Source: Spirochaetota bacterium
GTDB lineage: Bacteria > Spirochaetota > Spirochaetia > Treponematales > UBA12059
Length of the DNA: 64,000 bases
Assembly: GCA_031402655.1 (NCBI GenBank)
Contig: JANNSO010000119.1
Coordinates: 72,764-136,763 of the forward strand
Direction of reading: 5' to 3'
Shown in pieces: positions 9,347-48,042 of the stretch (position 1 is its first letter; each line of letters opens with the position of its first letter). The notes beneath the pieces are model-generated. The model was not told where the DNA came from. It ran no database searches and saw only the letters and a list, made by a program, of their open reading frames with translations. Both the position numbers and the translations under genes were made by a program.

Positions 9347-10096
9347 CTAAAATAACGCCGCCATCATCACCGCCGCAGCGGTGGCTACGCTGAGCGACTC
9401 AGCCCGGCCGGCTCCCGGAATCGTCGCTATTTCGTCGGCAAGGGCAAGGATGGCTTCCGAAGGCCCGCGCGCTTCGTTTGAAAAGACGATAGCCTTAGGC
9501 TCGCCGCCCCTGAATTCCCGGTAATCGCGGCCATGTAAATCGGCTACGACAAGCCGGTAGTTTTTTTTAAGCTCCAGCAGTTTGACCTCTAGGCTTTCGC
9601 ACAAGATGAAATGGCTGCGGAATACCGACCCCATGCTGGAGCGCACCGCCTTGGAGTTGAAAGGATCCACGCAGGTCTCGCCGATTAGAATCTCGCTAAA
9701 ACCGAACCAATCGGCGCTGCGCACGATGTTTCCCATATTGCGAGGGTCGGCCACGTCGAACAGCACCGGCAGGATGCTTTTTGTCGCCTCGGCAGTCACC
9801 AGGGATGTATACTCAAAAACACCGATCAGACCCTGCGGATGTTCCGTTTCGGCCAGCCTCAAAAAATCCCGCTCGCCTAGAATAATGGCATTGGCGGCAC
9901 TCAAGAGCGCGTCGGTATCCTCGTGTTCCCCATAAAATCCCTCGCGTACGTACACCGCGCGGCAGGCGCAGGGAGAGCGGAGGCCTTCTTCCACGACTTT
10001 ACGCCCCTCGGCCAAAAAAAGCCCGCTTTCCTGCCTGGCCTTCCGCTGCTTCAGGGATATGCTAAACTTGAAATCGCTTGGACTATCGCTAATCAT
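9347..10096 (-). CDS. TrmH/SpoU-family RNA 2'-O-methyltransferase
   Basis: 249 aa with SpoU motifs: DPRNMGNIVRSADWFG, IVFSNEARG and IPGAGRAESLSVATAAAVMM. Confidence 0.85.
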   Translation of the reverse strand: MISDSPSDFKFSISLKQRKARQESGLFLAEGRKVVEEGLRSPCACRAVYVREGFYGEHEDTDALLSAANAIILGERDFLRLAETEHPQGLIGVFEYTSLVTAEATKSILPVLFDVADPRNMGNIVRSADWFGFSEILIGETCVDPFNSKAVRSSMGSVFRSHFILCESLEVKLLELKKNYRLVVADLHGRDYREFRGGEPKAIVFSNEARGPSEAILALADEIATIPGAGRAESLSVATAAAVMMAALF

Positions 10097-10191
10097 TGAT
10101 CCCAGTGTAACACAGAGCCGGTCGCTGGGTAAGTCTTTTGGATTGGAATCCGCGGCATGACTCGCGATGATGACCTTTTTTTCCTTTTTCC

Positions 10192-10220
10192 TTGACGAGA
10201 GGCCGCAGGGAGACTAGTCT
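10192..10220 (+). promoter_or_regulatory. weak candidate promoter immediately upstream of repeat copy B1
   Basis: TTGACG (10192..10197), a 17-nt spacer, then TAGTCT (10215..10220). The predicted start would fall at the first base of B1. Confidence 0.3.
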
Positions 10221-10228
10221 AATATTTG

Positions 10229-10336
10229 AGGGAAGCTCGAAAAACTTCAGTTTTGCGAGGTTGACCAATAAAAAACCTGATTCCTGGAAGGAATCAGCGA
10301 GGCACCTCTGATAACCATAGGGTTATTAGAGATGCC
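10229..10336 (+). repeat. repeat family B, copy B1 (full length, three hairpins)
   Basis: Aligns over about 105 nt with 50551..50658. Hairpin 1 is CTCGAAAAACTTCAGTTTTGCGAGG. Hairpin 2 is CTGATTCC-TGGAA-GGAATCAG. Hairpin 3 is GGCACCTCTGATAACC-ATAG-GGTTATTAGAGATGCC. Confidence 0.85.
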
Positions 10337-10365
10337 CTTGAATCATTTTTCTAGGAGGAATAAAA

Positions 10366-11052
10366 GTGAAACGATTGCTCGTTCTTTTTCTGTTCATGAC
10401 CGTTGCGATGACCTTGGTCTTTGCGCAAAGCATCTCCGAGCTGAAAGCAGCTTCCGAAGCGGCAGTTAGAGTTGCCGCTGCAGCGCCCGGCGATTATGCC
10501 TCCAACTGGATGGCGGCGAAGGCTCAGCGCAAATATGGCGCGGAACTCGTTACCCTGGAGGCGCAGGATTGGAAAGGCCTTGCGAAAGCCGCCGCGAAAG
10601 ACGGAATGAAATTCGGCGAGATTGCGCAAAAACTCAGTCCCAACGGCATCGAAGGCTGGTATTGGTATGGACTCTGCGTCGGTACCTATGCAGATTGCGT
10701 AAGCATTCTGACGGCTCTGGGCGAAGGCCTCAAAGGCAAGACCCAAAAGGGTTTCGAGATGGCGTACAAAGTAAACAAGATGTACGACAACGGCGGACCG
10801 ATGCTTTCGTTGGGTCGTTTCTGGCAGGTTTTACCTGGAATCGCAGGCAAGGACCTCAAGAAAGCCGAACAATTGTTTAATGAATATATGAGTCTCCTTG
10901 GCGCAAGCAAGGATGCCAACAAGGACGCCTGGTACTACCGCGGAGCGCTTTACAAGGAATTGGGCAGGATACCCGAAGCCCGCGCCGACCTCCAGAAAGC
11001 CGTTTCCCTAGGCCAGAAAGACGCGCCCAAGCTGCTCGCCGAGCTTAAATAA
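10366..11052 (+). CDS. secreted hypothetical protein, TPR-like C-terminus
   Basis: 228 aa. GTG start with an AGGAGG SD. Signal peptide MKRLLVLFLFMTVAMTLVFAQS. The helical-repeat-like end is AWYYRGALYKELGRIPEARADLQKAVSLG. Confidence 0.6.
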   Translation: MKRLLVLFLFMTVAMTLVFAQSISELKAASEAAVRVAAAAPGDYASNWMAAKAQRKYGAELVTLEAQDWKGLAKAAAKDGMKFGEIAQKLSPNGIEGWYWYGLCVGTYADCVSILTALGEGLKGKTQKGFEMAYKVNKMYDNGGPMLSLGRFWQVLPGIAGKDLKKAEQLFNEYMSLLGASKDANKDAWYYRGALYKELGRIPEARADLQKAVSLGQKDAPKLLAELK

Positions 11053-11064
11053 GATCGACTCAAT

Positions 11065-11098
11065 CTGCCTGCCCAGTCTTTTAAGTTGGGCAGGGCAG
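11065..11098. terminator. hairpin between convergent genes (possible bidirectional terminator)
   Basis: CTGCCTGCCCA-11 nt loop-TGGGCAGGGCAG, an imperfect stem with one bulge. Confidence 0.4.
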
Positions 11099-11169
11099 CA
11101 TTTAAACCTATTTGCTCCTGTCTTCCTCTGTGTTCTCCGTGCCTCTGTGGTAAAAATTCCTGTATTCTT

Positions 11170-11769
11170 TCAGTATCCCTTTTCGTCCATCGCCTCGAAC
11201 GCAGCGCGAACCTTCTCAAGCCTTGCGAGTTCCCGTTCTATCATGCGCTGGTAATCCAGTTCGCCGTTGGCGATCCGGTAGGATTCATCCACCCAGAATT
11301 GTACTTCGGGAACAAATACCCAGGGCATTTGCTCGGCTTTTGCGGACCATTCTTTGGCGGTCTTCCAGTAAAAAAGGGCGGCTTTATAGGCGGTTTCTGC
11401 TGTTTTAAGGCTTTCGAGATTTTCATTTTTCCAGGGCGCATTGTAGAAATATGCAACCTGCTTGTCGAATTTGCTGCCCAGTAAAAGGTGCTGTTCTATC
11501 ATTTTAAGCTCGATGTGCATGTTAAAAAGATAACGGTATCGTTCCCAGTGTTTTTCGTCCGCGATCTTGGCCATGGCATACAGCGGATTGCAGAAATCGG
11601 CTTTGCGCGCCTGTTCCAGCCAGTAAATGTTCTCGATCGTGTCGTCGGGATATTGTATGTAATGCGTGTGATAAAGCTTAAAATACTGCTCTTTGAAGTA
11701 AACCGGGAAGGCGGTGCCGGCAAAGCTTACTAGAAGTATCAGGGTAAGGAGTAAGGCTATTCGCTTCAT
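11170..11769 (-). CDS. secreted hypothetical protein
   Basis: 199 aa. Signal peptide MKRIALLLTLILLVSFAGTA. No motif recognised. Confidence 0.6.
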   Translation of the reverse strand: MKRIALLLTLILLVSFAGTAFPVYFKEQYFKLYHTHYIQYPDDTIENIYWLEQARKADFCNPLYAMAKIADEKHWERYRYLFNMHIELKMIEQHLLLGSKFDKQVAYFYNAPWKNENLESLKTAETAYKAALFYWKTAKEWSAKAEQMPWVFVPEVQFWVDESYRIANGELDYQRMIERELARLEKVRAAFEAMDEKGY

Positions 11770-38771: not shown

Positions 38772-38849
38772 ATTATTCCTCTCCAGCCTTGATTTTCTCC
38801 ACTTGGTCTCCTAAAATTACTTTATTGCCAAATACGCAATGGGGGTAAT

Positions 38850-39197
38850 ATGGGTAGTTCCGAGCTTCAAGTGAACCTTCCTTTATCTGGTGTGCTAAAT
38901 ATAGAAAATTCTGCTGAAACAGCCCTCCTGCTTTCCGATGCAATCAACAAATCCGAAAAGCTGGCAATAGATTTAAGCGGAGTCAGGGAGCTGGATCTGC
39001 CTGGTATCCAGCTTTTATATTCGGCAAGCCGGACCGCCGCCAACAAGGGCAGGTCGTTGGTCCTTACGGGGAGCATAGCTCCGGAGGCAATTCGCAAATT
39101 GCTGCATGCCGGCTTTATTCAAAATACCTGCAGCTCAGGCGAGGCTTTGATGGCCATGCTTCCCGATTTTTTTGCGGCAGGCAGTAAGACATGCTAG
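38850..39197 (+). CDS. STAS-domain protein (anti-sigma-antagonist fold), first gene of the che operon
   Basis: 115 aa. LAIDLSGVRELDLPGIQLLYSASRTAANKGRSLVLTG resembles SpoIIAA/STAS, but DLPG sits where phosphorylatable STAS proteins have DSSG. It overlaps the cheA start. Confidence 0.7.
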   Translation: MGSSELQVNLPLSGVLNIENSAETALLLSDAINKSEKLAIDLSGVRELDLPGIQLLYSASRTAANKGRSLVLTGSIAPEAIRKLLHAGFIQNTCSSGEALMAMLPDFFAAGSKTC

Positions 39198-41350
39198 ATA
39201 AATTCAAAGACGCATTTCGCGAAGAGGCTCAGGAACTCCTTGGGAATCTGGAAACCCTGCTTTTGGAGCTTGAGGTGGACAGTACGGACATGGAACTGAT
39301 CAATGCCGCTTTTCGGGCTGTTCATACCATAAAAGGCTCGGCAGGCATGTTTGGCTTCGAACGCATCAGCCGTTTTACCCACGATTTTGAGACGCTTTTG
39401 GACAGCTGCCGCTCCGGTGCCTGCACGGTGGACAAGCATCTCATCGACCTATCGCTCAGAGCACGCGACGTCATACGCGAAATGCTCACCGAAGAAGACA
39501 ATACGCTTCCATTCAGCGATGTAGCGCAGCGGCTGATGGGTGAATTTCGCCTCGCCATCAGTTCGTGCGCGGACGCGGTTCCGGATGCTGCGCCTGCCAG
39601 GCTGCCTGCAGAGGGGAGCCTGGCAGTCCAACCCATTCAGCCGGCAATGCCGAGAGAAATATTTACCGTGGAACCCAACGACGACTCCAGCGGAACATAC
39701 CGGATATTCTTTAAGCCGCCCCCGTCCATCTTTAAGAACGGCACTCGCGTTTTAAAGCTATTCGAGGAGCTTGCCGATCTTGGCGAACTTTCCGCGCATC
39801 CGCGCATGCGCGACCTTCCGTCTCTCGATGCGCTTGACCCGGAGCTCTGCTACGTCGCCTGGGATATTATTCTTACTACCAGTCAGGGAATTAACTCCAT
39901 CCAGGACGTGTTTATCTTTATCGATTGCGCCGCGGATTTGAAGATAGAGCGACTCGATAACCCCGACGAGCTGCTTCGCGATCGGCCCAAAAAGCTTGGG
40001 GAGATACTCGTGGAACGCGGCTTGATTCAGGCTGAAGCCCTGGGCATTGCATTGAAGTCCCAGCGGAAGCTCGGGGAAGTGCTCTTGGAAAAAAATATCG
40101 TGTCGCCGGGGGAGCTGGAATCGGCACTGGTCGAGCAGGCGCATTTAAAGCGCGCTCAGGAAAAGCAAAGCGAAACCGCAGGTTCAATTCGAGTCTCCAG
40201 CGAAAAGCTCGATCAGCTGGTCGATCTCGTAGGCGAAATGGTGACTCTGCAAGCCAGGCTGGCCCGAACTTCTTTGCAGTTGGGGGACACGGGATTATCC
40301 TCGATATCCGAGCAATTCGAGCGGCTTGTTTCCCAATTGCGGGATAACGCCATGAGCGTGCGCATGCTGCCCATCGGTTCTACCTTTAATAAATTTCGCA
40401 GGGTTGTGCGGGATCTTTCTGCGGAGCTTGGCAAGGAAGTGGAGTTATTGACAGAAGGAGCCGACACCGAGCTGGACAAAACCGTAATAGAGCGGCTCAA
40501 TGATCCCCTGGTACATATAATAAGGAACTCACTGGATCATGGAATCGAGAAGCCGCAAGACCGCATTGCCGCAGGGAAACCTTCGGGTGGAAAAATAACC
40601 CTCTCGGCCCAGCATTCGGGGGCTCATGTCGTGATAAGCGTTTCCGACGATGGAAAAGGCCTGGATATCGACGCTATTCGAGCCAAGGCGATAGAGCGCG
40701 GCATCCTGAGTGCCAACCAGGACCTCAGTGACGAGGATGCGTTCATGCTTATCTTCAGGCCTGGTTTTAGTACCGCAAAAAACGTTACCAGCGTTTCAGG
40801 CAGGGGCGTGGGCATGGATGTGGTGAAGCGAGAGATAGATTCGCTGGGCGGCATGGTTACTGTGGAATCGATCAAGGGCAAAGGTTCCAGGATTTTGCTT
40901 AAAATTCCGCTTACCCTGGCGATAATCGAAGGTCTGCTTGTGCGCATCGGCAATGAGTTTTTCGTGCTGCCCCTGTCTTCCGTGGAGGGCTGCGTCGAAC
41001 TTTCCCGGGACGAAAACGGCTCGGGCGAGAATGGCAGGATAATGCGCTACCGCGAAGAATTGCTGCCGTATATCGATCTGCGCGACTTTTTCTCCGTGCC
41101 GGGAATCGCTCCCGCGCTTTCCCAGGTTGTGGTCATCAATTCCCAGGGCAGCCATATGGGACTGGTCGTCGATAATGTTATCGGGGATTACCAGACCGTC
41201 ATCAAACCGCTTGGACGCATGTTCAAGGATGCTGAGGGCCTGTCGGGAGCCACGATACTGGGTGACGGCACCGTGGCGCTTATAGTAGACTTTAACGGCC
41301 TGGCAAACCATTCCCGCGCTTCGGGTAAAATTAAAGCGGGTACACAATGA
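39191..41350 (+). CDS. cheA: chemotaxis histidine kinase CheA with an inserted MshEN-like segment
   Basis: 719 aa. Hpt domain (AVHTIKGSAGMFG), a dimerisation region, the HATPase (DHGIEKP...GRGVGMDVV) and a C-terminal CheW-like domain. The extra segment at aa 268-316 is described in the findings. Confidence 0.93.
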   Translation: MLDKFKDAFREEAQELLGNLETLLLELEVDSTDMELINAAFRAVHTIKGSAGMFGFERISRFTHDFETLLDSCRSGACTVDKHLIDLSLRARDVIREMLTEEDNTLPFSDVAQRLMGEFRLAISSCADAVPDAAPARLPAEGSLAVQPIQPAMPREIFTVEPNDDSSGTYRIFFKPPPSIFKNGTRVLKLFEELADLGELSAHPRMRDLPSLDALDPELCYVAWDIILTTSQGINSIQDVFIFIDCAADLKIERLDNPDELLRDRPKKLGEILVERGLIQAEALGIALKSQRKLGEVLLEKNIVSPGELESALVEQAHLKRAQEKQSETAGSIRVSSEKLDQLVDLVGEMVTLQARLARTSLQLGDTGLSSISEQFERLVSQLRDNAMSVRMLPIGSTFNKFRRVVRDLSAELGKEVELLTEGADTELDKTVIERLNDPLVHIIRNSLDHGIEKPQDRIAAGKPSGGKITLSAQHSGAHVVISVSDDGKGLDIDAIRAKAIERGILSANQDLSDEDAFMLIFRPGFSTAKNVTSVSGRGVGMDVVKREIDSLGGMVTVESIKGKGSRILLKIPLTLAIIEGLLVRIGNEFFVLPLSSVEGCVELSRDENGSGENGRIMRYREELLPYIDLRDFFSVPGIAPALSQVVVINSQGSHMGLVVDNVIGDYQTVIKPLGRMFKDAEGLSGATILGDGTVALIVDFNGLANHSRASGKIKAGTQ

Positions 41351-42204
41351 GCATGGAGGAGGCCGGCGACCTCAGACATTATGAGGGTCTTTCTGACAGG
41401 GCTTTTAAGAAACTCGCGGAATATATCGAAGCCCAGCTCGGCATCCGCATGCCCGACGCAAAGCGGATAATGCTGGAGAGCCGCCTGCAGAAACGGCTGC
41501 GCATACTCGGACTTCCCGATTATGACGCATATCTGGACCATGTCTTTTCAGACAGCGACAATACCGAACTTGTGCAGATGATCGATGCAGTGACCACGAA
41601 CAAGACCGATTTTTTCAGGGAACCCGATCACTTCGATATACTTACTTCGCGTATCCTGCCCAAAGCCCTGTCGAATCCGGGCATGGGTAGACCTTTTTCC
41701 TTCTGGTCCGCCGGATGCGCAACGGGGGAAGAGCCCTATACCCTGGCCATGGTGCTTGAGGAATTTATTTTAACCCATCCGGGTTTTTCCTACCAAATAA
41801 TAGCATCGGACATTTCTACGCAAGCTTTGCAAAAGGCTGTAAACGCGATTTACCCAAGCGAGCGCGTAGACGTGGTTCCCCTGGCGCTGAAGCGGAAATA
41901 TCTTTTGCGGTCTAAGGATTCGCAGAAAGGCGATGTACGATTCAAGAAGGAAGTCCGGGAAAAAATTAAATTCATCCGCTTGAATTTCATGGATGACAGC
42001 TATCCGTTCGAAGGCGTATTCGACATGGTTTTTTGCAGGAATGTTATTATTTATTTTGACCGTGCAACCCAGGAGAAGATGCTGGGCCGTATTTGCAGGC
42101 ACCTGCGGCCGGGAGGCAACCTGTTTCTAGGGCATTCGGAAACGCTGACGGGCATGAGTCTGCCCTTGCGTTCCATAGCTCCCACTGTTTACGAAAAATT
42201 ATAG
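41347..42204 (+). CDS. cheR: chemotaxis protein methyltransferase CheR
   Basis: 285 aa. TNKTDFFREPDHF, and SAM-binding FWSAGCATGEEPYTLAM and FCRNVIIYFD. Confidence 0.92.
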   Translation: MSMEEAGDLRHYEGLSDRAFKKLAEYIEAQLGIRMPDAKRIMLESRLQKRLRILGLPDYDAYLDHVFSDSDNTELVQMIDAVTTNKTDFFREPDHFDILTSRILPKALSNPGMGRPFSFWSAGCATGEEPYTLAMVLEEFILTHPGFSYQIIASDISTQALQKAVNAIYPSERVDVVPLALKRKYLLRSKDSQKGDVRFKKEVREKIKFIRLNFMDDSYPFEGVFDMVFCRNVIIYFDRATQEKMLGRICRHLRPGGNLFLGHSETLTGMSLPLRSIAPTVYEKL

Positions 42205-42225
42205 AAGACCAAGGACGGCCGATAG

Positions 42226-43292
<1,067 letters not shown>

Positions 43293-43345
43293 CTTGTAAA
43301 TCGAAGAGCCGCTTTTAGCGGCCAGTTTGGATTCAGGAGGTTTTT

Positions 43346-43714
43346 ATGGGTAAAAAAATATTGGTTATTGATGATTCCGCCGCGATCCGGCAGAGCATTT
43401 CCTACATTCTCAACCAGGAAGGCTATGAAACCACCGAGGCCTGCGACGGTCTTGAGGGGCTGCAGAAGCTGGACGGTGTTGACCATCTCGACTGCATCAT
43501 AACCGATGTAAACATGCCCAATATGGACGGCATTACCTTTATACGCAAGGCACGGGAAAACGGCAAGTTCAAATTCGTCCCGATTCTGGTGCTTACCACG
43601 GAATCGCAGGGAGCTAAAATGAACGAGGGCAAGGATGCGGGTGCCACGGGCTGGATCGTAAAGCCGTTCAGCGCCGACAAATTATTGGCCGTGGTAAAAA
43701 AGGTAGCGGAATAG
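43346..43714 (+). CDS. cheY: chemotaxis response regulator CheY
   Basis: 122 aa single REC domain. ILVIDDS, ITDVNMPNMDG, LTTE and WIVKPF motifs. AGGAGG SD. Confidence 0.9.
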   Translation: MGKKILVIDDSAAIRQSISYILNQEGYETTEACDGLEGLQKLDGVDHLDCIITDVNMPNMDGITFIRKARENGKFKFVPILVLTTESQGAKMNEGKDAGATGWIVKPFSADKLLAVVKKVAE

Positions 43715-43716
43715 CC

Positions 43717-44217
43717 GTGGAAAACGCCAAGCCGCTTGCGGGAAGGTTTCTGACGTTTATGCTCGACGGCGAGATTTACGCCGTAACGGTGGAACGCGTC
43801 GAAGTAGTACTGGAAATGCAGACTATTACGAGGGTTCCCAATACGGATTCGCAGATATGCGGCGTAATCAACCATCGCGGATCGGTGATTCCCGTAGTCG
43901 ATTTGCGAATACGGTTCGGCCAGAGGCCATCGCTTCGCGACGAGAGCTGCTCGATAGTCGTTCTCCAGGTCAAGTACGAAGGCGAAACGCTGACGGCAGG
44001 CATGCTTGCGGACGGCGTGCGCGAGGTGCTGGACATAGAAACCGACGCGCTGGAATCCACGCCGAAAATCGGTGAGCGAAAAGGCGTGGCATCCGGTTCC
44101 GCCGCTTCATCCTGCGTAGCGGGGCTGGCCAGGATAGGTAAAGATTTTATTATAATTTTGGATATCGACGCTACGTACGCCAGAGGTTCCTCTATTTTGG
44201 AAACGGGCCATGCATAG
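43717..44217 (+). CDS. cheW: chemotaxis coupling protein CheW
   Basis: 166 aa, GTG start. FLTFMLDGEIYAVTVERVEVVLE...ICGVINHRGSVIPVVDLR is a typical CheW sequence. Confidence 0.88.
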   Translation: MENAKPLAGRFLTFMLDGEIYAVTVERVEVVLEMQTITRVPNTDSQICGVINHRGSVIPVVDLRIRFGQRPSLRDESCSIVVLQVKYEGETLTAGMLADGVREVLDIETDALESTPKIGERKGVASGSAASSCVAGLARIGKDFIIILDIDATYARGSSILETGHA

Positions 44218-46135
44218 CAAAAAAAACCTCTCTACCCCCGTCGAATCGCCGGAAACCCGTATACTCATAGTGGAGGACGAAACCATAGTAGCCCTGGACA
44301 TGAGGGCCAGGCTCCAGAGCCTTGGTTACACGGTAGTGGGCACCGCTCCTTCCAGCGAGCTTGCCATTGCGCTTGCAAAAAAGTACGAGCCTCACCTGGT
44401 GCTTATGGATATAAAACTTCACGGCGATACCGACGGAGTCGAAACGGCGCGCAGGATCTGCAAGATACGCGAAGTTCCCGTGGTTTTCGTAACCGCTTAC
44501 ACCGATGAAAGCACGCTGCGGAACGTGCAGAGCTCGAGTTCCTACGGGTATATCGTCAAGCCCTACCACGAACGCGAATTGCGAATAGCCATCGAGCTGG
44601 CGCTGTCAAAGTTCTCCTATGAAAGAAAAATCCTCGAAGCCAAGGAAAAGGCGGAGGAGCACGATCGCGCAAAGAGTTTGTTCCTGTCGAATATCAGCCA
44701 TGAGCTTAAAACTCCCCTTAACGCGATTATAGGATTTACCGACCTTGCGGCGACACTGGCCGAGGATCCTGAGTTAAAAGAATATATCTATATGGCCAGC
44801 CGCGGAGCCAGAAAACTCGAGTCGAGCATAAACTCGCTCCTGGACTACACGAAACTGGAAAGCGGCGCGCTCGTGCCCGTATATTCGGAATTCGCCCTGG
44901 AGGACATGCTGGCGCGATCATGGGAACCATATGCAGCGGAGGCATACGGCAAGGGCCTGGCTTTGTCCCTGTGCCTGGATCCCGCTTTGCCCCAAACGCT
45001 GCACGGAGACGCCGTGCATATATCCGCCATTATAAAAAACCTGCTTGAAAACGCCGTCAAGTTTACCGAATCCGGCTATGTCAGCCTTTCTGCCCGTCGG
45101 GAAATCGTGGACGGCAAAAGCATGATGCAAATTTCAGTCGCGGACAGCGGACGAGGCATTCCCGCGGATTTTCGCGAAACGATTTTCAAGCGCTTTACCC
45201 AGTTTGACGAATCCTATACCAGGCTCGTCGGCGGCATGGGACTGGGGCTTTCCCTGGTTCAGGGTCTTGCCCATCTCCTGGATATACAATTGACCCTGCG
45301 CGAGAATCCTGCCGGCGGTACGGAATTCCAGTTGCGCATGGCTATCGATGCCAAGGCTGCCCGCTCATATCCGGAATCCGCTCAGCGATTCTATTCCTTT
45401 ACGATAGGCTTGTTCGGAATGCATCCGGAGGTGGCGAAAGGTATAGGCTTCATGGCCGAGAGTCTGGGGGCGGGTATTCTCGCCCTCGATTCGCTCACCA
45501 TCAAAAGCGGCAGCGTAAACGCCTTGTTTATCGATGTCGCATCCTGGTCGCGCTGTGGCGCGGAAGTCAGGGAGCGGTGCGTAGCCGCCGTGAAAAACGG
45601 CTTGCCGCTGCTTTTTATCGTTGGATCCCCGGGCGAACTTAAACAGAATCCCGAGCCTGGAACCCCCCAGCGCGTTTCGTATCCGCTTGGCTTGAATATT
45701 ATGTATTCGGCACTCCAAAGGGCAGCATCTGCCGTGGCTTCGGGAAAAGCCGTCGCCGACCCGTCCCCGCTGAAATATCTCGACGTTCGCATCGAAACGC
45801 CGGGGATACTCTCGCACGATAGCAATAAAAATAAACATGAAACCGCAAGTCTCGAATACGCAAAACTTTTCGATGCGGCAAAAACGGAGTTGCGGGCTTC
45901 GGCGGATATGAATTCGGCGATGCAAAACTTGTTCCTGGATATTCAGGATGCCTATATAAATGGCGACGAGGAAGCCATCGAGCGGATAGCAAAAAGACAT
46001 TACGACAACTTTTCTGAGCAAAAGGCCAGCGCATGCGCCAAGTTTACCTTGTCTGTTTTGATGGATTCGCGGAAAGGACCAGGGCCTTGGATTCGGAGTC
46101 TGCATGCACTTATGAAAAACAACCTTGGTTCTTGA
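44210..46135 (+). CDS. hybrid sensor kinase: N-terminal REC, HisKA, HATPase, plus a C-terminal extension of about 230 aa of unclear nature
   Basis: 641 aa. REC (ILIVEDE...LMDIKL...KPY), H-box FLSNISHELKTPLNAIIGF, and G-boxes DSGRGIP and GGMGLGLSLV. The C-terminal part could be a degenerate receiver plus an Hpt-like helix bundle; this is a weak inference. Confidence 0.85.
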   Translation: MHSKKNLSTPVESPETRILIVEDETIVALDMRARLQSLGYTVVGTAPSSELAIALAKKYEPHLVLMDIKLHGDTDGVETARRICKIREVPVVFVTAYTDESTLRNVQSSSSYGYIVKPYHERELRIAIELALSKFSYERKILEAKEKAEEHDRAKSLFLSNISHELKTPLNAIIGFTDLAATLAEDPELKEYIYMASRGARKLESSINSLLDYTKLESGALVPVYSEFALEDMLARSWEPYAAEAYGKGLALSLCLDPALPQTLHGDAVHISAIIKNLLENAVKFTESGYVSLSARREIVDGKSMMQISVADSGRGIPADFRETIFKRFTQFDESYTRLVGGMGLGLSLVQGLAHLLDIQLTLRENPAGGTEFQLRMAIDAKAARSYPESAQRFYSFTIGLFGMHPEVAKGIGFMAESLGAGILALDSLTIKSGSVNALFIDVASWSRCGAEVRERCVAAVKNGLPLLFIVGSPGELKQNPEPGTPQRVSYPLGLNIMYSALQRAASAVASGKAVADPSPLKYLDVRIETPGILSHDSNKNKHETASLEYAKLFDAAKTELRASADMNSAMQNLFLDIQDAYINGDEEAIERIAKRHYDNFSEQKASACAKFTLSVLMDSRKGPGPWIRSLHALMKNNLGS

Positions 46136-46151
46136 CGATAGGGAGGAAAAT

Positions 46152-46562
46152 GTGCCTAAATTTCTTGTTGTTGAGGACGATTTCGGCAGTCGTCGAATGA
46201 TGCAGAAACTATTGAAGGACTATGGCGACGTCGACGTAGTGGTGGATGGCGAGGAAGCCGTGCAGGCATTTTCGATGACCAGGGATGACGATATAAAATA
46301 TGCTGCGATTTTTTTGGATATCATGATGCCCAGGATGGATGGGCACGAGGCATTGAAGAGAATACGCGCCATGGAAAAAGAGCTTGGGGTAAACCCCGCC
46401 AGTGAAGTAAAGATAATTATGACCACCGTACTGGAAGATCCGAGGAATGTCGTGGATGCATATTTCAGCGGCGGAGCGACCTCCTATCTGGTCAAGCCGG
46501 TAGACAGGCTTAAAGTGCGTTCCGAGATGCAAAAGCTGGGCTTCCTGCCGGTTATAGGCTAG
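46152..46562 (+). CDS. single-domain response regulator (REC only)
   Basis: GTG at 46152 is preceded by GGAGG (track ORF starts at 46125). FLVVEDD, FLDIMMPRMDG and YLVKP motifs. Confidence 0.8.
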   Translation: MPKFLVVEDDFGSRRMMQKLLKDYGDVDVVVDGEEAVQAFSMTRDDDIKYAAIFLDIMMPRMDGHEALKRIRAMEKELGVNPASEVKIIMTTVLEDPRNVVDAYFSGGATSYLVKPVDRLKVRSEMQKLGFLPVIG

Positions 46563-46572
46563 GTATTATACA

Positions 46573-48042
46573 ATGAATAAAAATGTACGTATCGCAATTT
46601 GCGAGGATGAGCGGATCGTTTCGCTTGACATTGCTAAATTCCTCGAGCGTAACGGCTATGAATGCGCCGGTTCCTTCGATTCCGCCGAGGGATTGCTTCA
46701 ATACCTTGAGATGGAGAAGCCGGATCTGGTTTTGATGGACATCCATTTAAAAGGCAAAATGGACGGCATAGAGGCGTCTTCCATAATATTTACCAGGTTC
46801 ATGATTCCGGTGATTCTGCTTACAGCCTATGCCGATACGGCCACCATCGAGCGAGCCAAGATTACCCAGCCTTATGCCTACGTGCTCAAGCCTTATGACG
46901 AGCGGGAGCTTAAAACCGCCATAGAACTTGGCTTGTACCGTGCGACGATGGAACGTAAACTGCGCGATAGCGAGGCTTTGTACCGCGGCTTGTTTTCCGG
47001 CGGCCTTACCGCGCAATGCCTGATATCGGGCGATGGCATCATAAGCGAAAAAAACCAGGCTTTTTCCGCCCTGGCAGGTGTCGGCGAGGGCATCGTGCTT
47101 TTTAATGACCTTATTCCCGAGCCGGAATTCCGAGGGCATGTCGACGCCTGCCTGTCCAAGGGCCACGGAATGCCGGTACGCGAAACGGTGCTTCAGGCAA
47201 TAACGGGAGTAAAGAAAAATATACTGGTTAGCCTTACCCCGCTTAATCTTTTTTCGGGCTCCCTTTCGTTTCTCTGCCAGGCTATAGACATAAGCGAACG
47301 GCACGAACTCATGAAGCAGTTGCTGCAATCGCAAAAAATGGACGCATTGGGCAGGCTTTCGAGCAGCGTCGCCCACGATTTCAACAATATCCTGACGGCG
47401 ATAATTGGTTATGCGCGAATGCTGGAAACCGAGTTTCCCGATGATTCGCCCTCCCAGGGAGATATTGACGGAATAATCCAGACGGCAAATCGAGCTTCCA
47501 CGCTTACGCGCAGGCTTCTGATGTTTGCCCGTGCCGAAAATTCGGAACCGGTTCATATTTCGCTGCATGAATTATGCGGGGACATGGTGCAAATGCTGGC
47601 TCATCTCCTAGGCAGCGATACGCATCTGAATCTCGTGTCAGAGGGCACTTCCGACAATGTGTTCATTGACCGCTCGCGGATGGAACAGGTTGTCATGAAC
47701 CTTTGCGTCAACGCCAGGGATGCGACTCCCGGCGGCGGAATCATAGAGCTTACGACGGGCATCGTTAACCTGAGCGAAAAAATAATGGGAGCGGTAATGG
47801 AAATTCCCGAAGGCGCCTGGGTTTTTATGAGCGTCGAGGACCACGGTTCGGGTATGGACGAGTCGATCATACATCATGTGTTCGAGCCGTTTTTTACCAC
47901 GAAATCGCGGGAAACGGGCACGGGTCTGGGCTTGTCCACCGTCCTTGGCATAGTGCAAAGCGCTCATGGCTACATCGATGTAAATAGCAAGAAGAATTCG
48001 GGTTCCAAATTTACGGTATATTTGCCGCTTGTAGGTTGTTGA
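46573..48042 (+). CDS. REC-PAS-HisKA-HATPase sensor kinase
   Basis: 489 aa. The N-terminal REC is paralogous to that of 44210..46135. A PAS-like middle region is followed by H-box SSVAHDFNNILTAIIGY and an ATPase with DHGSGM and GTGLGLS. Confidence 0.85.
   Translation: MNKNVRIAICEDERIVSLDIAKFLERNGYECAGSFDSAEGLLQYLEMEKPDLVLMDIHLKGKMDGIEASSIIFTRFMIPVILLTAYADTATIERAKITQPYAYVLKPYDERELKTAIELGLYRATMERKLRDSEALYRGLFSGGLTAQCLISGDGIISEKNQAFSALAGVGEGIVLFNDLIPEPEFRGHVDACLSKGHGMPVRETVLQAITGVKKNILVSLTPLNLFSGSLSFLCQAIDISERHELMKQLLQSQKMDALGRLSSSVAHDFNNILTAIIGYARMLETEFPDDSPSQGDIDGIIQTANRASTLTRRLLMFARAENSEPVHISLHELCGDMVQMLAHLLGSDTHLNLVSEGTSDNVFIDRSRMEQVVMNLCVNARDATPGGGIIELTTGIVNLSEKIMGAVMEIPEGAWVFMSVEDHGSGMDESIIHHVFEPFFTTKSRETGTGLGLSTVLGIVQSAHGYIDVNSKKNSGSKFTVYLPLVGC

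Follow-up and report, generated by a model that had tools for sequence, protein, structure and literature searches.

A CheA1-related, probably F8-type chemosensory operon and its possible relay of receiver-controlled histidine kinases in a free-living Treponematales spirochaete

Results

A nine-gene chemosensory operon

This study concerns a nine-gene chemosensory operon at positions 38850-48042 of a 64-kb stretch of DNA (G000:C119:72764-136763; "the window" below denotes this whole stretch) from the 3.71-Mb draft genome, in 139 contigs, of a spirochaete of the order Treponematales. All nine genes lie on the + strand and abut one another, and Pfam matches identify their products, in order, as a STAS-domain protein, CheA, CheR, CheB, CheY, CheW, a histidine kinase with an N-terminal receiver (REC) domain (HK1), a lone REC protein and a second REC-bearing histidine kinase (HK2) (Table 1). 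The consecutive gene junctions measure -7, -4, +21, +53, +2, -8, -11 (or +16) and +10 nucleotides (nt), so that the co-directional, tightly packed layout described in the original prediction, which had been made from the sequence alone, is confirmed. The nine genes, which are conserved as a unit, are predicted to form one operon, and we see roughly an even chance that this operon joins a CheA1/F8-type pathway of a free-living spirochaete to a relay of receiver-controlled histidine kinases, a reading that relies on comparative sequence analysis.

Table 1. Features of the operon and candidate receptor genes on other contigs (aa, amino acids; ORF, open reading frame; AF2, AlphaFold2; pLDDT, predicted local distance difference test)
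Feature	Position	Strand	Size	Evidence and remarks
Promoter-like site TTGATT-17-TAAAAT	38789..38817	+		Only such site within the 78 nt that precede the STAS gene
STAS-domain protein	38850..39197	+	115 aa	Pfam STAS_2, 7.6e-12; stop overlaps cheA start by 7 nt
CheA	39191..41350	+	719 aa	Pfam Hpt, H-kinase_dim, HATPase_c, CheW; PDB CheA matches
CheA, P2-like domain	39692-39955	+		Ferredoxin-type
CheA, MshEN-like motifs	39992-40138	+		Tandem motifs
CheR methyltransferase	41347..42204	+	285 aa	Pfam CheR, 1.8e-57; CheR_N
CheB methylesterase (REC + esterase), split	42226..43292	+		Two ORFs, 42226-43005 and 42996-43292
CheY	43346..43714	+	122 aa	Pfam; canonical D/D/D/T/K
CheW	43717..44217	+	166 aa	Pfam CheW, 4e-28; stop overlaps HK1 start by 8 nt
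HK1	44210..46135	+	641 aa	REC-HisKA-HATPase plus tail; Pfam
HK1, pseudo-receiver	about 45401-45742	+		AF2 model and Foldseek
HK1, five-helix bundle	about 45830-46126	+		AF2, block-mean pLDDT 74-93
Lone REC protein	46152..46562	+	about 136 aa	Pfam and alignment; ORF open from TTG 46125
HK2	46573..48042	+	489 aa	REC, PAS-like region (aa ~130-250), HisKA, HATPase; Pfam; last gene of the operon
34H-like receptor	C112:9601-11433 (or 9691-11436)			~78-aa tail ending DDDFEEF, pentapeptide-like tether; own CheW gene follows
34H-like receptor	C94:26931-28481			Tip and heptad count
34H-like receptor	C110:4042-5391			Tip and heptad count

Two receiver-bearing kinases and a lone receiver

In each of the five receivers encoded in the operon, namely those of CheY, CheB, HK1, the lone REC protein and HK2, the acceptor Asp is present together with the acidic pair, the Lys and the Thr/Ser. 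Both kinases retain their catalytic boxes, and the phospho-sites of CheA, HK1 and HK2 are intact. In HK1, Pfam places the REC domain at aa 18-128, HisKA at aa 154-219 and HATPase at aa 266-377; the linker between REC and the DHp domain (for dimerization and histidine phosphotransfer) is helical, and D67, T95, K117, H164, N281 and the G1 and G2 boxes are invariant among 8 orthologues. HK1 thus has the architecture of a REC-controlled histidine kinase of the LvrB type, as does HK2, with a PAS-like insert. The receivers of the two kinases are paralogues (42% identity), and alignment recovers the shared motifs that had been quoted in support of this relationship. The genome encodes a third REC-kinase (C98:27186-29276, 697 aa), the receiver of which is 49% identical to that of HK1 and 46% identical to that of HK2, and is thus nearer to both than they are to each other.

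The kinase core of HK2 is closest to that of CckA (5idj, 8.8e-44) and also matches LvrB (8vc9, 1.7e-24), and its receiver resembles ANTAR-type receivers. Pfam gives no match to the PAS domain originally assigned to HK2 even at E<=10; the domain is supported instead by an alignment of HK2 with the PAS-kinase ThkA (3a0r) over aa 147-482, the PAS region included, and by the orthologous kinases of two other genomes (G036 and G245), where Pfam does detect PAS in the corresponding place.

The C-terminal extension of HK1 comprises ~250 aa, rather than the 230 aa first estimated, and was modelled by AF2 at pLDDT 70 as a pseudo-receiver followed by a five-helix bundle. For the pseudo-receiver, Foldseek returned receiver domains, the pseudo-receiver of CikA and the FleQ domain (target TM-scores ~0.57-0.68). 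In the tail alignment, conservation extends neither to the acidic pocket nor to the Lys or the acceptor Asp, and the helical bundle has no conserved His. Given that neither Asp nor His is conserved, we rejected the possibility that the tail is a working phosphorelay of a REC and a histidine phosphotransfer (HPt) domain, as in HK-REC-HPt hybrids, and read it as a probable degenerate remnant of such a REC-HPt module. The tail has no Pfam match at E<=10, and a word-indexed homologue search retrieved only HK1 itself and its same-genus orthologue, the sequence being too divergent for this method.

The reading frame of the lone REC gene probably starts not at the listed TTG but at GTG 46152, which is preceded by a GGGAGGA Shine-Dalgarno site and agrees with the N-termini of the orthologues. 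The protein has a canonical acidic pocket with the D, T and K residues and a long alpha3-beta4 loop, and its type is rare, being present in 16 of 401 sampled spirochaete genomes (E<=1e-25). Its sole paralogue in the same genome (33% identity) is encoded beside another cheA gene, on contig C30, in divergent orientation.

Domain organization and class of CheA

CheA consists of a P1/Hpt domain, a P2-like domain of ferredoxin type, MshEN-like motifs, a short P3, P4 and P5, and Pfam detects no C-terminal receiver. The interval between P1 and P3 contains a conserved beta-alpha-beta-beta-alpha-beta domain (AF2 pLDDT 79.5) with ferredoxin-like Foldseek hits, which we take as a divergent P2, as this model suggests; the P2-like region has no Pfam match at E<=10. 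Between this domain and P3, residues 268-316 form two tandem 24-residue motifs, KLGEILVERGLIQAEALGIALKSQ and KLGEVLLEKNIVSPGELESALVEQ, which fit the MshEN consensus (PMC5013675) and are kept in 13/13 orthologues.

Four CheA genes are present in the genome: the one in the window, one on C85 (817 aa), one on C30 (C30:9096-11983, 762 aa) and, on C112, a CheA-CheW-CheW-REC hybrid cut at the contig end. The C30 CheA has two Hpt-like regions and tandem MshEN-like motifs of its own. In a maximum-likelihood tree of the P4-P5 core of 24 sequences, among which one member carries a literature label of F8 and none is a labelled reference of the alternative cellular function (ACF) class, the window CheA falls into a clade with 96/91 support that holds STAS-linked spirochaete CheAs, including the 728-aa CheA of a Borrelia-like genome, and is not joined with the C112 hybrid from its own genome. 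With 100/100 support, the C85 CheA is placed among F2 CheAs, together with the Borrelia-like CheA2 and the T. denticola-like CheA. The names Borrelia-like, T. denticola-like and T. caldarium-like express a presumed identity of these genomes, judged from gene order; the Borrelia-like cluster reads CheW-STAS-CheA-CheB-MCP-like-CheY, which we take to be the published cheW2-bb0566-cheA1-cheB2-bb0569-cheY2 layout.

The Borrelia kinases have been labelled CheA1-F8 and CheA2-F2, and the F2 flagellar operon has been described (PMC7666581). Because the window CheA shares a clade with the Borrelia-like CheA1, it probably belongs to class F8 and not to the ACF class to which the original prediction had assigned the cluster; CheA lacks a C-terminal receiver, the cluster lacks a gene for a methyl-accepting chemotaxis protein (MCP), and there is no link in the tree to the CheA-REC hybrid of the same genome. 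The flagellar F2 operon of this organism (cheA, cheW-cheR-like, cheX, cheY) is split over two contig ends (C85:102-3852 and C37:49-1441), such that the C85 cheA is followed by a gene for a CheW-CheR-like fusion and the operon continues on C37 with cheX and cheY. Given this separate F2 set and the grouping of its CheA with F2 CheAs, the operon in the window is a second chemosensory system and not the flagellar one, as had been anticipated.

Conservation and reduced forms of the operon

The gene order (ftsH-TPR)-STAS-CheA-R-B-Y-W-HK1-REC-HK2, where TPR stands for a tetratricopeptide repeat-like protein gene, is shared by 15 of the 17 relative loci examined and by five further genomes, and in all by more than 20 Treponematales genomes from about 10 genera, which bears out the proposal that the three two-component genes belong with the che genes to one unit. 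Of 24 genomes sampled from the family of this spirochaete, 15 encode an HK1 orthologue, as does one genome from a neighbouring family. Reduced forms occur in other spirochaete families: one genome (G036) encodes, after CheY-CheW, a single REC-PAS-HisKA-HATPase-REC kinase, another (G245) has CheA-R-B-REC-HK2, and a third locus (L126) has CheA-R-B-HK-REC-HK2. A REC-kinase accompanies this CheA type in at least four lineages. This variable but recurring association, traced through gene order, argues for a functional link between the CheA lineage and the REC-kinases, the direction of which it does not fix.

In several genera (L083, L084, L085, L087 and L204), a gene lies between the secreted TPR/FG-GAP-like gene and the STAS gene. 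This 2-kb gene was considered as the missing receptor and rejected, as it encodes an HtrA-type PDZ serine protease.

Candidate receptors elsewhere in the genome

Pfam detects no MCPsignal, CheX, CheC or CheD match across the whole 145-kb contig, and the 64-kb window contains no flagellar or receptor genes, in line with the absences listed in the original prediction. Genome-wide, there are 24 MCPsignal matches. Where the hairpin tip could be recognised, it reads EAAHAG in most receptors, the C-terminal arm of which spans 167-168 residues (24 heptads, 48H-like), about 13 or more receptors of the genome being of this 48H type; in three receptors the tip is EAARAGEAGKGF and the arm counts 17 heptads (34H-like; Table 1). 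Locating the receptors and counting their heptads, as the original prediction had suggested, thus singled out a 34H-like group of three that matches the receptors of CheA1-type clusters: for the receptors inside such clusters of seven other genomes, the C112 receptor is the best match, followed by those on C94 and C110, with all other receptors far behind. In one genome (G004, contig C29; L077/L170), two 34H-type MCP genes and a cheW lie between the TPR-like gene and the STAS gene; its congener G015 has no such MCP-MCP-CheW insertion. In a 400-genome sample of the phylum, this CheA type and the 34H receptor type occur in the identical 15 of 50 genomes of family f3 (Treponemataceae), and are also found together in 8/8 Borrelia-like genomes, 1/4 genomes of family f5 and 1/1 of family f11. 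Furthermore, 34H receptors have been assigned to F8 systems (PMC11253619). From these sequence-based correspondences, the three 34H-type receptors are likely the cognate inputs of the operon CheA. The description "MCP-less" therefore fits the operon, which indeed holds no receptor gene, but not the pathway, given that 34H-type receptors encoded elsewhere track this CheA type.

The C112 receptor gene stands at the end of a larger Che cluster (C112:1-11936; L172) that comprises the CheA-CheW-CheW-REC hybrid, three 48H-like MCPs, CheW, CheB, CheR, the 34H-like MCP and CheW. The last two of these genes probably serve the window CheA rather than the C112 cluster. The closest paralogue of the operon CheW in the genome is this CheW beside the C112 34H receptor (38% identity).

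Other proteins of the operon and its surroundings

In the STAS-domain protein, the phospho-Ser position is occupied by a non-phosphorylatable Leu (D-L-P-G), which is present in 12/12 orthologues, so that the replacement of the DSSG motif by DLPG holds throughout. The STAS fold of SpoIIAA-type anti-sigma-factor antagonists is recognized by Pfam, whereas their phospho-Ser motif is lacking. A STAS gene occupies the equivalent place in the Borrelia-like cluster (cf. PMC6719511).

The cheB gene is present, as predicted, but not as a single ORF. In a DNA alignment with three relatives, an Ala codon close to 42985 (42982-42989) lacks a single base; as a result, positions 1-80 and 84-173 of the CheB_methylest profile fall in separate ORFs, and the Ser/His part of the esterase is separated from the Asp part. 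The reading frame is intact in every relative examined, the frameshift being unique to this assembly, and because the same-genus orthologue is 96-98% identical on either side of the break, the lesion either reflects an error in the assembly or has very recently turned cheB into a pseudogene. Of all genes in the cluster, that for CheY is the most conserved (73-98% identity in relatives with the kinase genes); the protein shares 54% identity with the CheY encoded in the Borrelia-like CheA1 cluster and only 31% with the F2 CheY from the same genome.

Upstream of the operon lie tilS, ftsH and the gene for the secreted TPR-like protein (681 aa); downstream of HK2, a converging minus-strand ABC-transporter operon is followed by mcsB and clpC. 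The remaining ORFs of the window of >=110 aa with Pfam matches are all housekeeping genes. Promoter and terminator scans yielded no more sites than shuffled controls, and, because the regional count does not exceed the controls, the promoter-like site ahead of the STAS gene is weak evidence for a promoter.

Discussion

We propose that, in this spirochaete, a CheA1/F8-type pathway is coupled to receiver-controlled kinases as follows. The 34H receptors, CheA and the operon CheW would form arrays in which CheR and CheB adapt the receptors, and CheA may additionally read cyclic di-GMP (c-di-GMP) via the tandem MshEN-like motifs between P2 and P3. CheA-P would charge CheY and CheB and, in addition, the N-terminal receiver of HK2 and/or HK1. 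Phosphorylation of the receiver would free the catalytic domain and turn the kinase on, as in LvrB (PMC13269768), with HK2 adding a cytoplasmic PAS input; the kinases would then charge the lone receiver and/or CheY, which would act on a probably non-motor target. The non-phosphorylatable STAS protein, presumably translationally coupled to CheA, would probably serve as a CheA-associated adaptor. By analogy with its precedents, gating of the REC-kinases by CheA-P is plausible, and transfer from CheA to a kinase receiver is favoured by the reduced operon of G036, where CheA is the only other kinase. The lone REC may be a node common to both kinds of kinase.

Several observations weigh against this proposal or parts of it. 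L095, L101 and G013 (a genome 57% complete) have the HK1-REC-HK2 triad with no che genes next to it, so that the kinase receivers must have another phosphoryl donor there. Conversely, many CheA1-type clusters come without kinase genes (six f3 loci, the Borrelia-like genome and three other families), and the lone-REC type is encoded beside CheA genes without such kinases on C30 of the same genome as well as in G228 and G238, so that this receiver could be a substrate of CheA and not of the kinases. In this assembly, cheB is frameshifted, and the F8 assignment of CheA, derived from its clade, is indirect. As for the c-di-GMP input, the spacer between the MshEN-like motifs of CheA is 1 residue, compared with 5 in Vibrio MshEN; Pfam did not find T2SSE_N in CheA at E<=10, the MshEN-like stretch giving chance-level matches only; and Foldseek searches with the model of the P2/MshEN region returned only generic ferredoxin-like folds, with no MshEN among the best 50. 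Sensing of c-di-GMP by CheA through these motifs, to which the sequence pattern points, may occur, and we treat it as a lead, not a finding.

The observations on the self-standing triad also speak for a different direction of phosphoryl flow, which we consider unlikely but worth serious attention. Under this alternative, HK1 and HK2 feed cytoplasmic (PAS) signals to the lone REC, to CheY and perhaps to CheB, in parallel to CheA, and the kinase receivers are charged mutually (HK2 to HK1) or by acetyl phosphate, and not by CheA. Such an arrangement has parallels, given that LvrA transfers to LvrB, the product of an adjoining kinase gene, in another spirochaete (PMC5863495), and that Rhodospirillum centenum CheY3 is phosphorylated only by the second kinase and not by CheA3 (PMC3868531); furthermore, the lone REC gene sits between the two kinase genes. 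However, in G036 a single REC-PAS-kinase follows cheW, and apart from CheA there is no further kinase that could charge its receiver; moreover, the pairing of REC-kinases with this CheA type, seen in four or more lineages, suggests direct coupling.

That the F8-type Che set and the three-gene two-component set are independent modules, adjacent or co-transcribed but exchanging no phosphoryl groups, appears improbable. Although each module does occur separately in other genomes, their gene order is kept across about 10 genera, the cheW stop overlaps the HK1 start, and the two are found together, independently and with different subsets of the genes, in distant families. Finally, it is highly improbable that the operon is the flagellar chemotaxis system of the organism, with CheY acting on the motor switch: the nominally "flagellar" status of class F8, the strong conservation of CheY and the modulation of swimming by F8 components of P. 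syringae (PMC11253619) agree with such a role, but a complete F2 set (long CheA, CheW-CheR-like protein, CheX, CheY and ~13 or more 48H-type receptors) is encoded elsewhere, the operon CheY is distant from the F2 CheY, and chemotaxis does not require the homologous CheA1 of Borrelia (PMC10703414).

The coupling of CheA to REC-kinases proposed here has to be seen against several known systems. With the Borrelia burgdorferi CheA1 cluster, the operon shares a STAS gene directly 5' of a gene for a short-P3, single-P2 CheA, the presence of CheB and CheY in the cluster, membership of CheA in the same clade (40% full-length identity, with the CheY identity given above) and the status of a second system beside the F2 flagellar one. 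Unlike the operon, the Borrelia cluster lacks REC-kinases, the lone REC and CheR and carries the MCP-like bb0569, and the MshEN-like motifs are unmatched in the Borrelia-like CheA, where the match spans residues 2-97 only. The output of Borrelia CheA1, RpoS stability, is known only phenomenologically (PMC10703414).

In the Che3 system of R. centenum (CheA3/CheS3/CheY3, class ACF), a second kinase with an N-terminal receiver and PAS is likewise encoded in a Che cluster; there, CheS3, a REC-REC-PAS kinase, is phosphorylated by CheA3 on its REC1 domain and is the only one of the two to phosphorylate CheY3 (PMC3868531). The likeness lies in the genetic layout, whereas the relay logic of the spirochaete operon is proposed. 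R. centenum is an alphaproteobacterium, its CheA3 is a CheA-REC hybrid, unlike the operon CheA, and its cluster includes an MCP; CheS3 belongs to the HWE kinases and has two receivers; the operon, in contrast, combines two REC-kinases of the HisKA type with a STAS protein and a CheA of apparently F8-like lineage.

HK1 has the REC-helix-DHp-CA (catalytic and ATP-binding) architecture of Leptospira LvrB, and both systems consist of adjacent genes for cytoplasmic kinases in a spirochaete host. The receiver of LvrB gates the kinase, with phosphorylation switching it on (PMC13269768). By contrast, the Lvr system has no Che genes, its donor is the PAS kinase LvrA and its output, LvrC, is a REC-anti-sigma factor; HK1 has the pseudo-receiver and the helical bundle in addition to the LvrB domains. 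As regards an output like that of LvrC, no RsbW-like or SpoIIE-type gene is linked to the cluster. Partner-switching modules are abundant in the genome at large, with 13 SpoIIE/PP2C phosphatase genes and many RsbW-like kinase genes. Lastly, the ancestral ("stage 1") F7 clusters of gamma-proteobacteria, such as V. cholerae cluster III and S. oneidensis Che1, also begin with a STAS/anti-sigma-antagonist gene and are related to stress or sigma factors, not to motor control (PMC7184735, PMC9855816). They differ from the operon in the class of CheA, in the Aer2-type 36H receptors and CheD encoded within the cluster, and in the output, which is a serine phosphatase and not histidine kinases.

Thus, a Che system feeding a second, receiver-gated kinase, the linkage of STAS with CheA1 and CheA-MshEN fusions are all known, the last having been catalogued (PMC5013675). 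In the literature searched, we found no account of spirochaetes in which two REC-kinases and a lone receiver are fused, as a conserved arrangement, to an F8/CheA1-type cluster, nor a matching assignment of 34H receptors. The operon, which is conserved in many environmental Treponematales, offers candidate downstream partners for the CheA1 lineage, namely two receiver-gated kinases and a rare single-domain receiver, as well as candidate inputs in the form of 34H receptors and, possibly, c-di-GMP. Borrelia CheA1 is reportedly dispensable for chemotaxis yet needed for transmission. To our knowledge, no molecular route from Borrelia CheA1 to its targets has been described, and little has been reported on what F8-type systems act upon.

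A wider speculation, which we regard as distinctly improbable in its full form, is that CheA1/F8 in free-living spirochaetes is a second-messenger-aware controller of stress or lifestyle, in which c-di-GMP and 34H receptors would set CheA, CheA-P would gate the two REC-kinases, and the output of these kinases, by way of the lone receiver and the STAS protein, would control a sigma-factor or protease circuit, the kinase-less CheA1 system of Borrelia being a reduced remnant. Regardless of this wider scenario, the coupling proposed for the operon would extend the logic of a CheA feeding a second kinase from one alphaproteobacterial ACF example to another class and another phylum, and the question of the output of the CheA1 lineage becomes testable in vitro, by phosphotransfer with soluble proteins.

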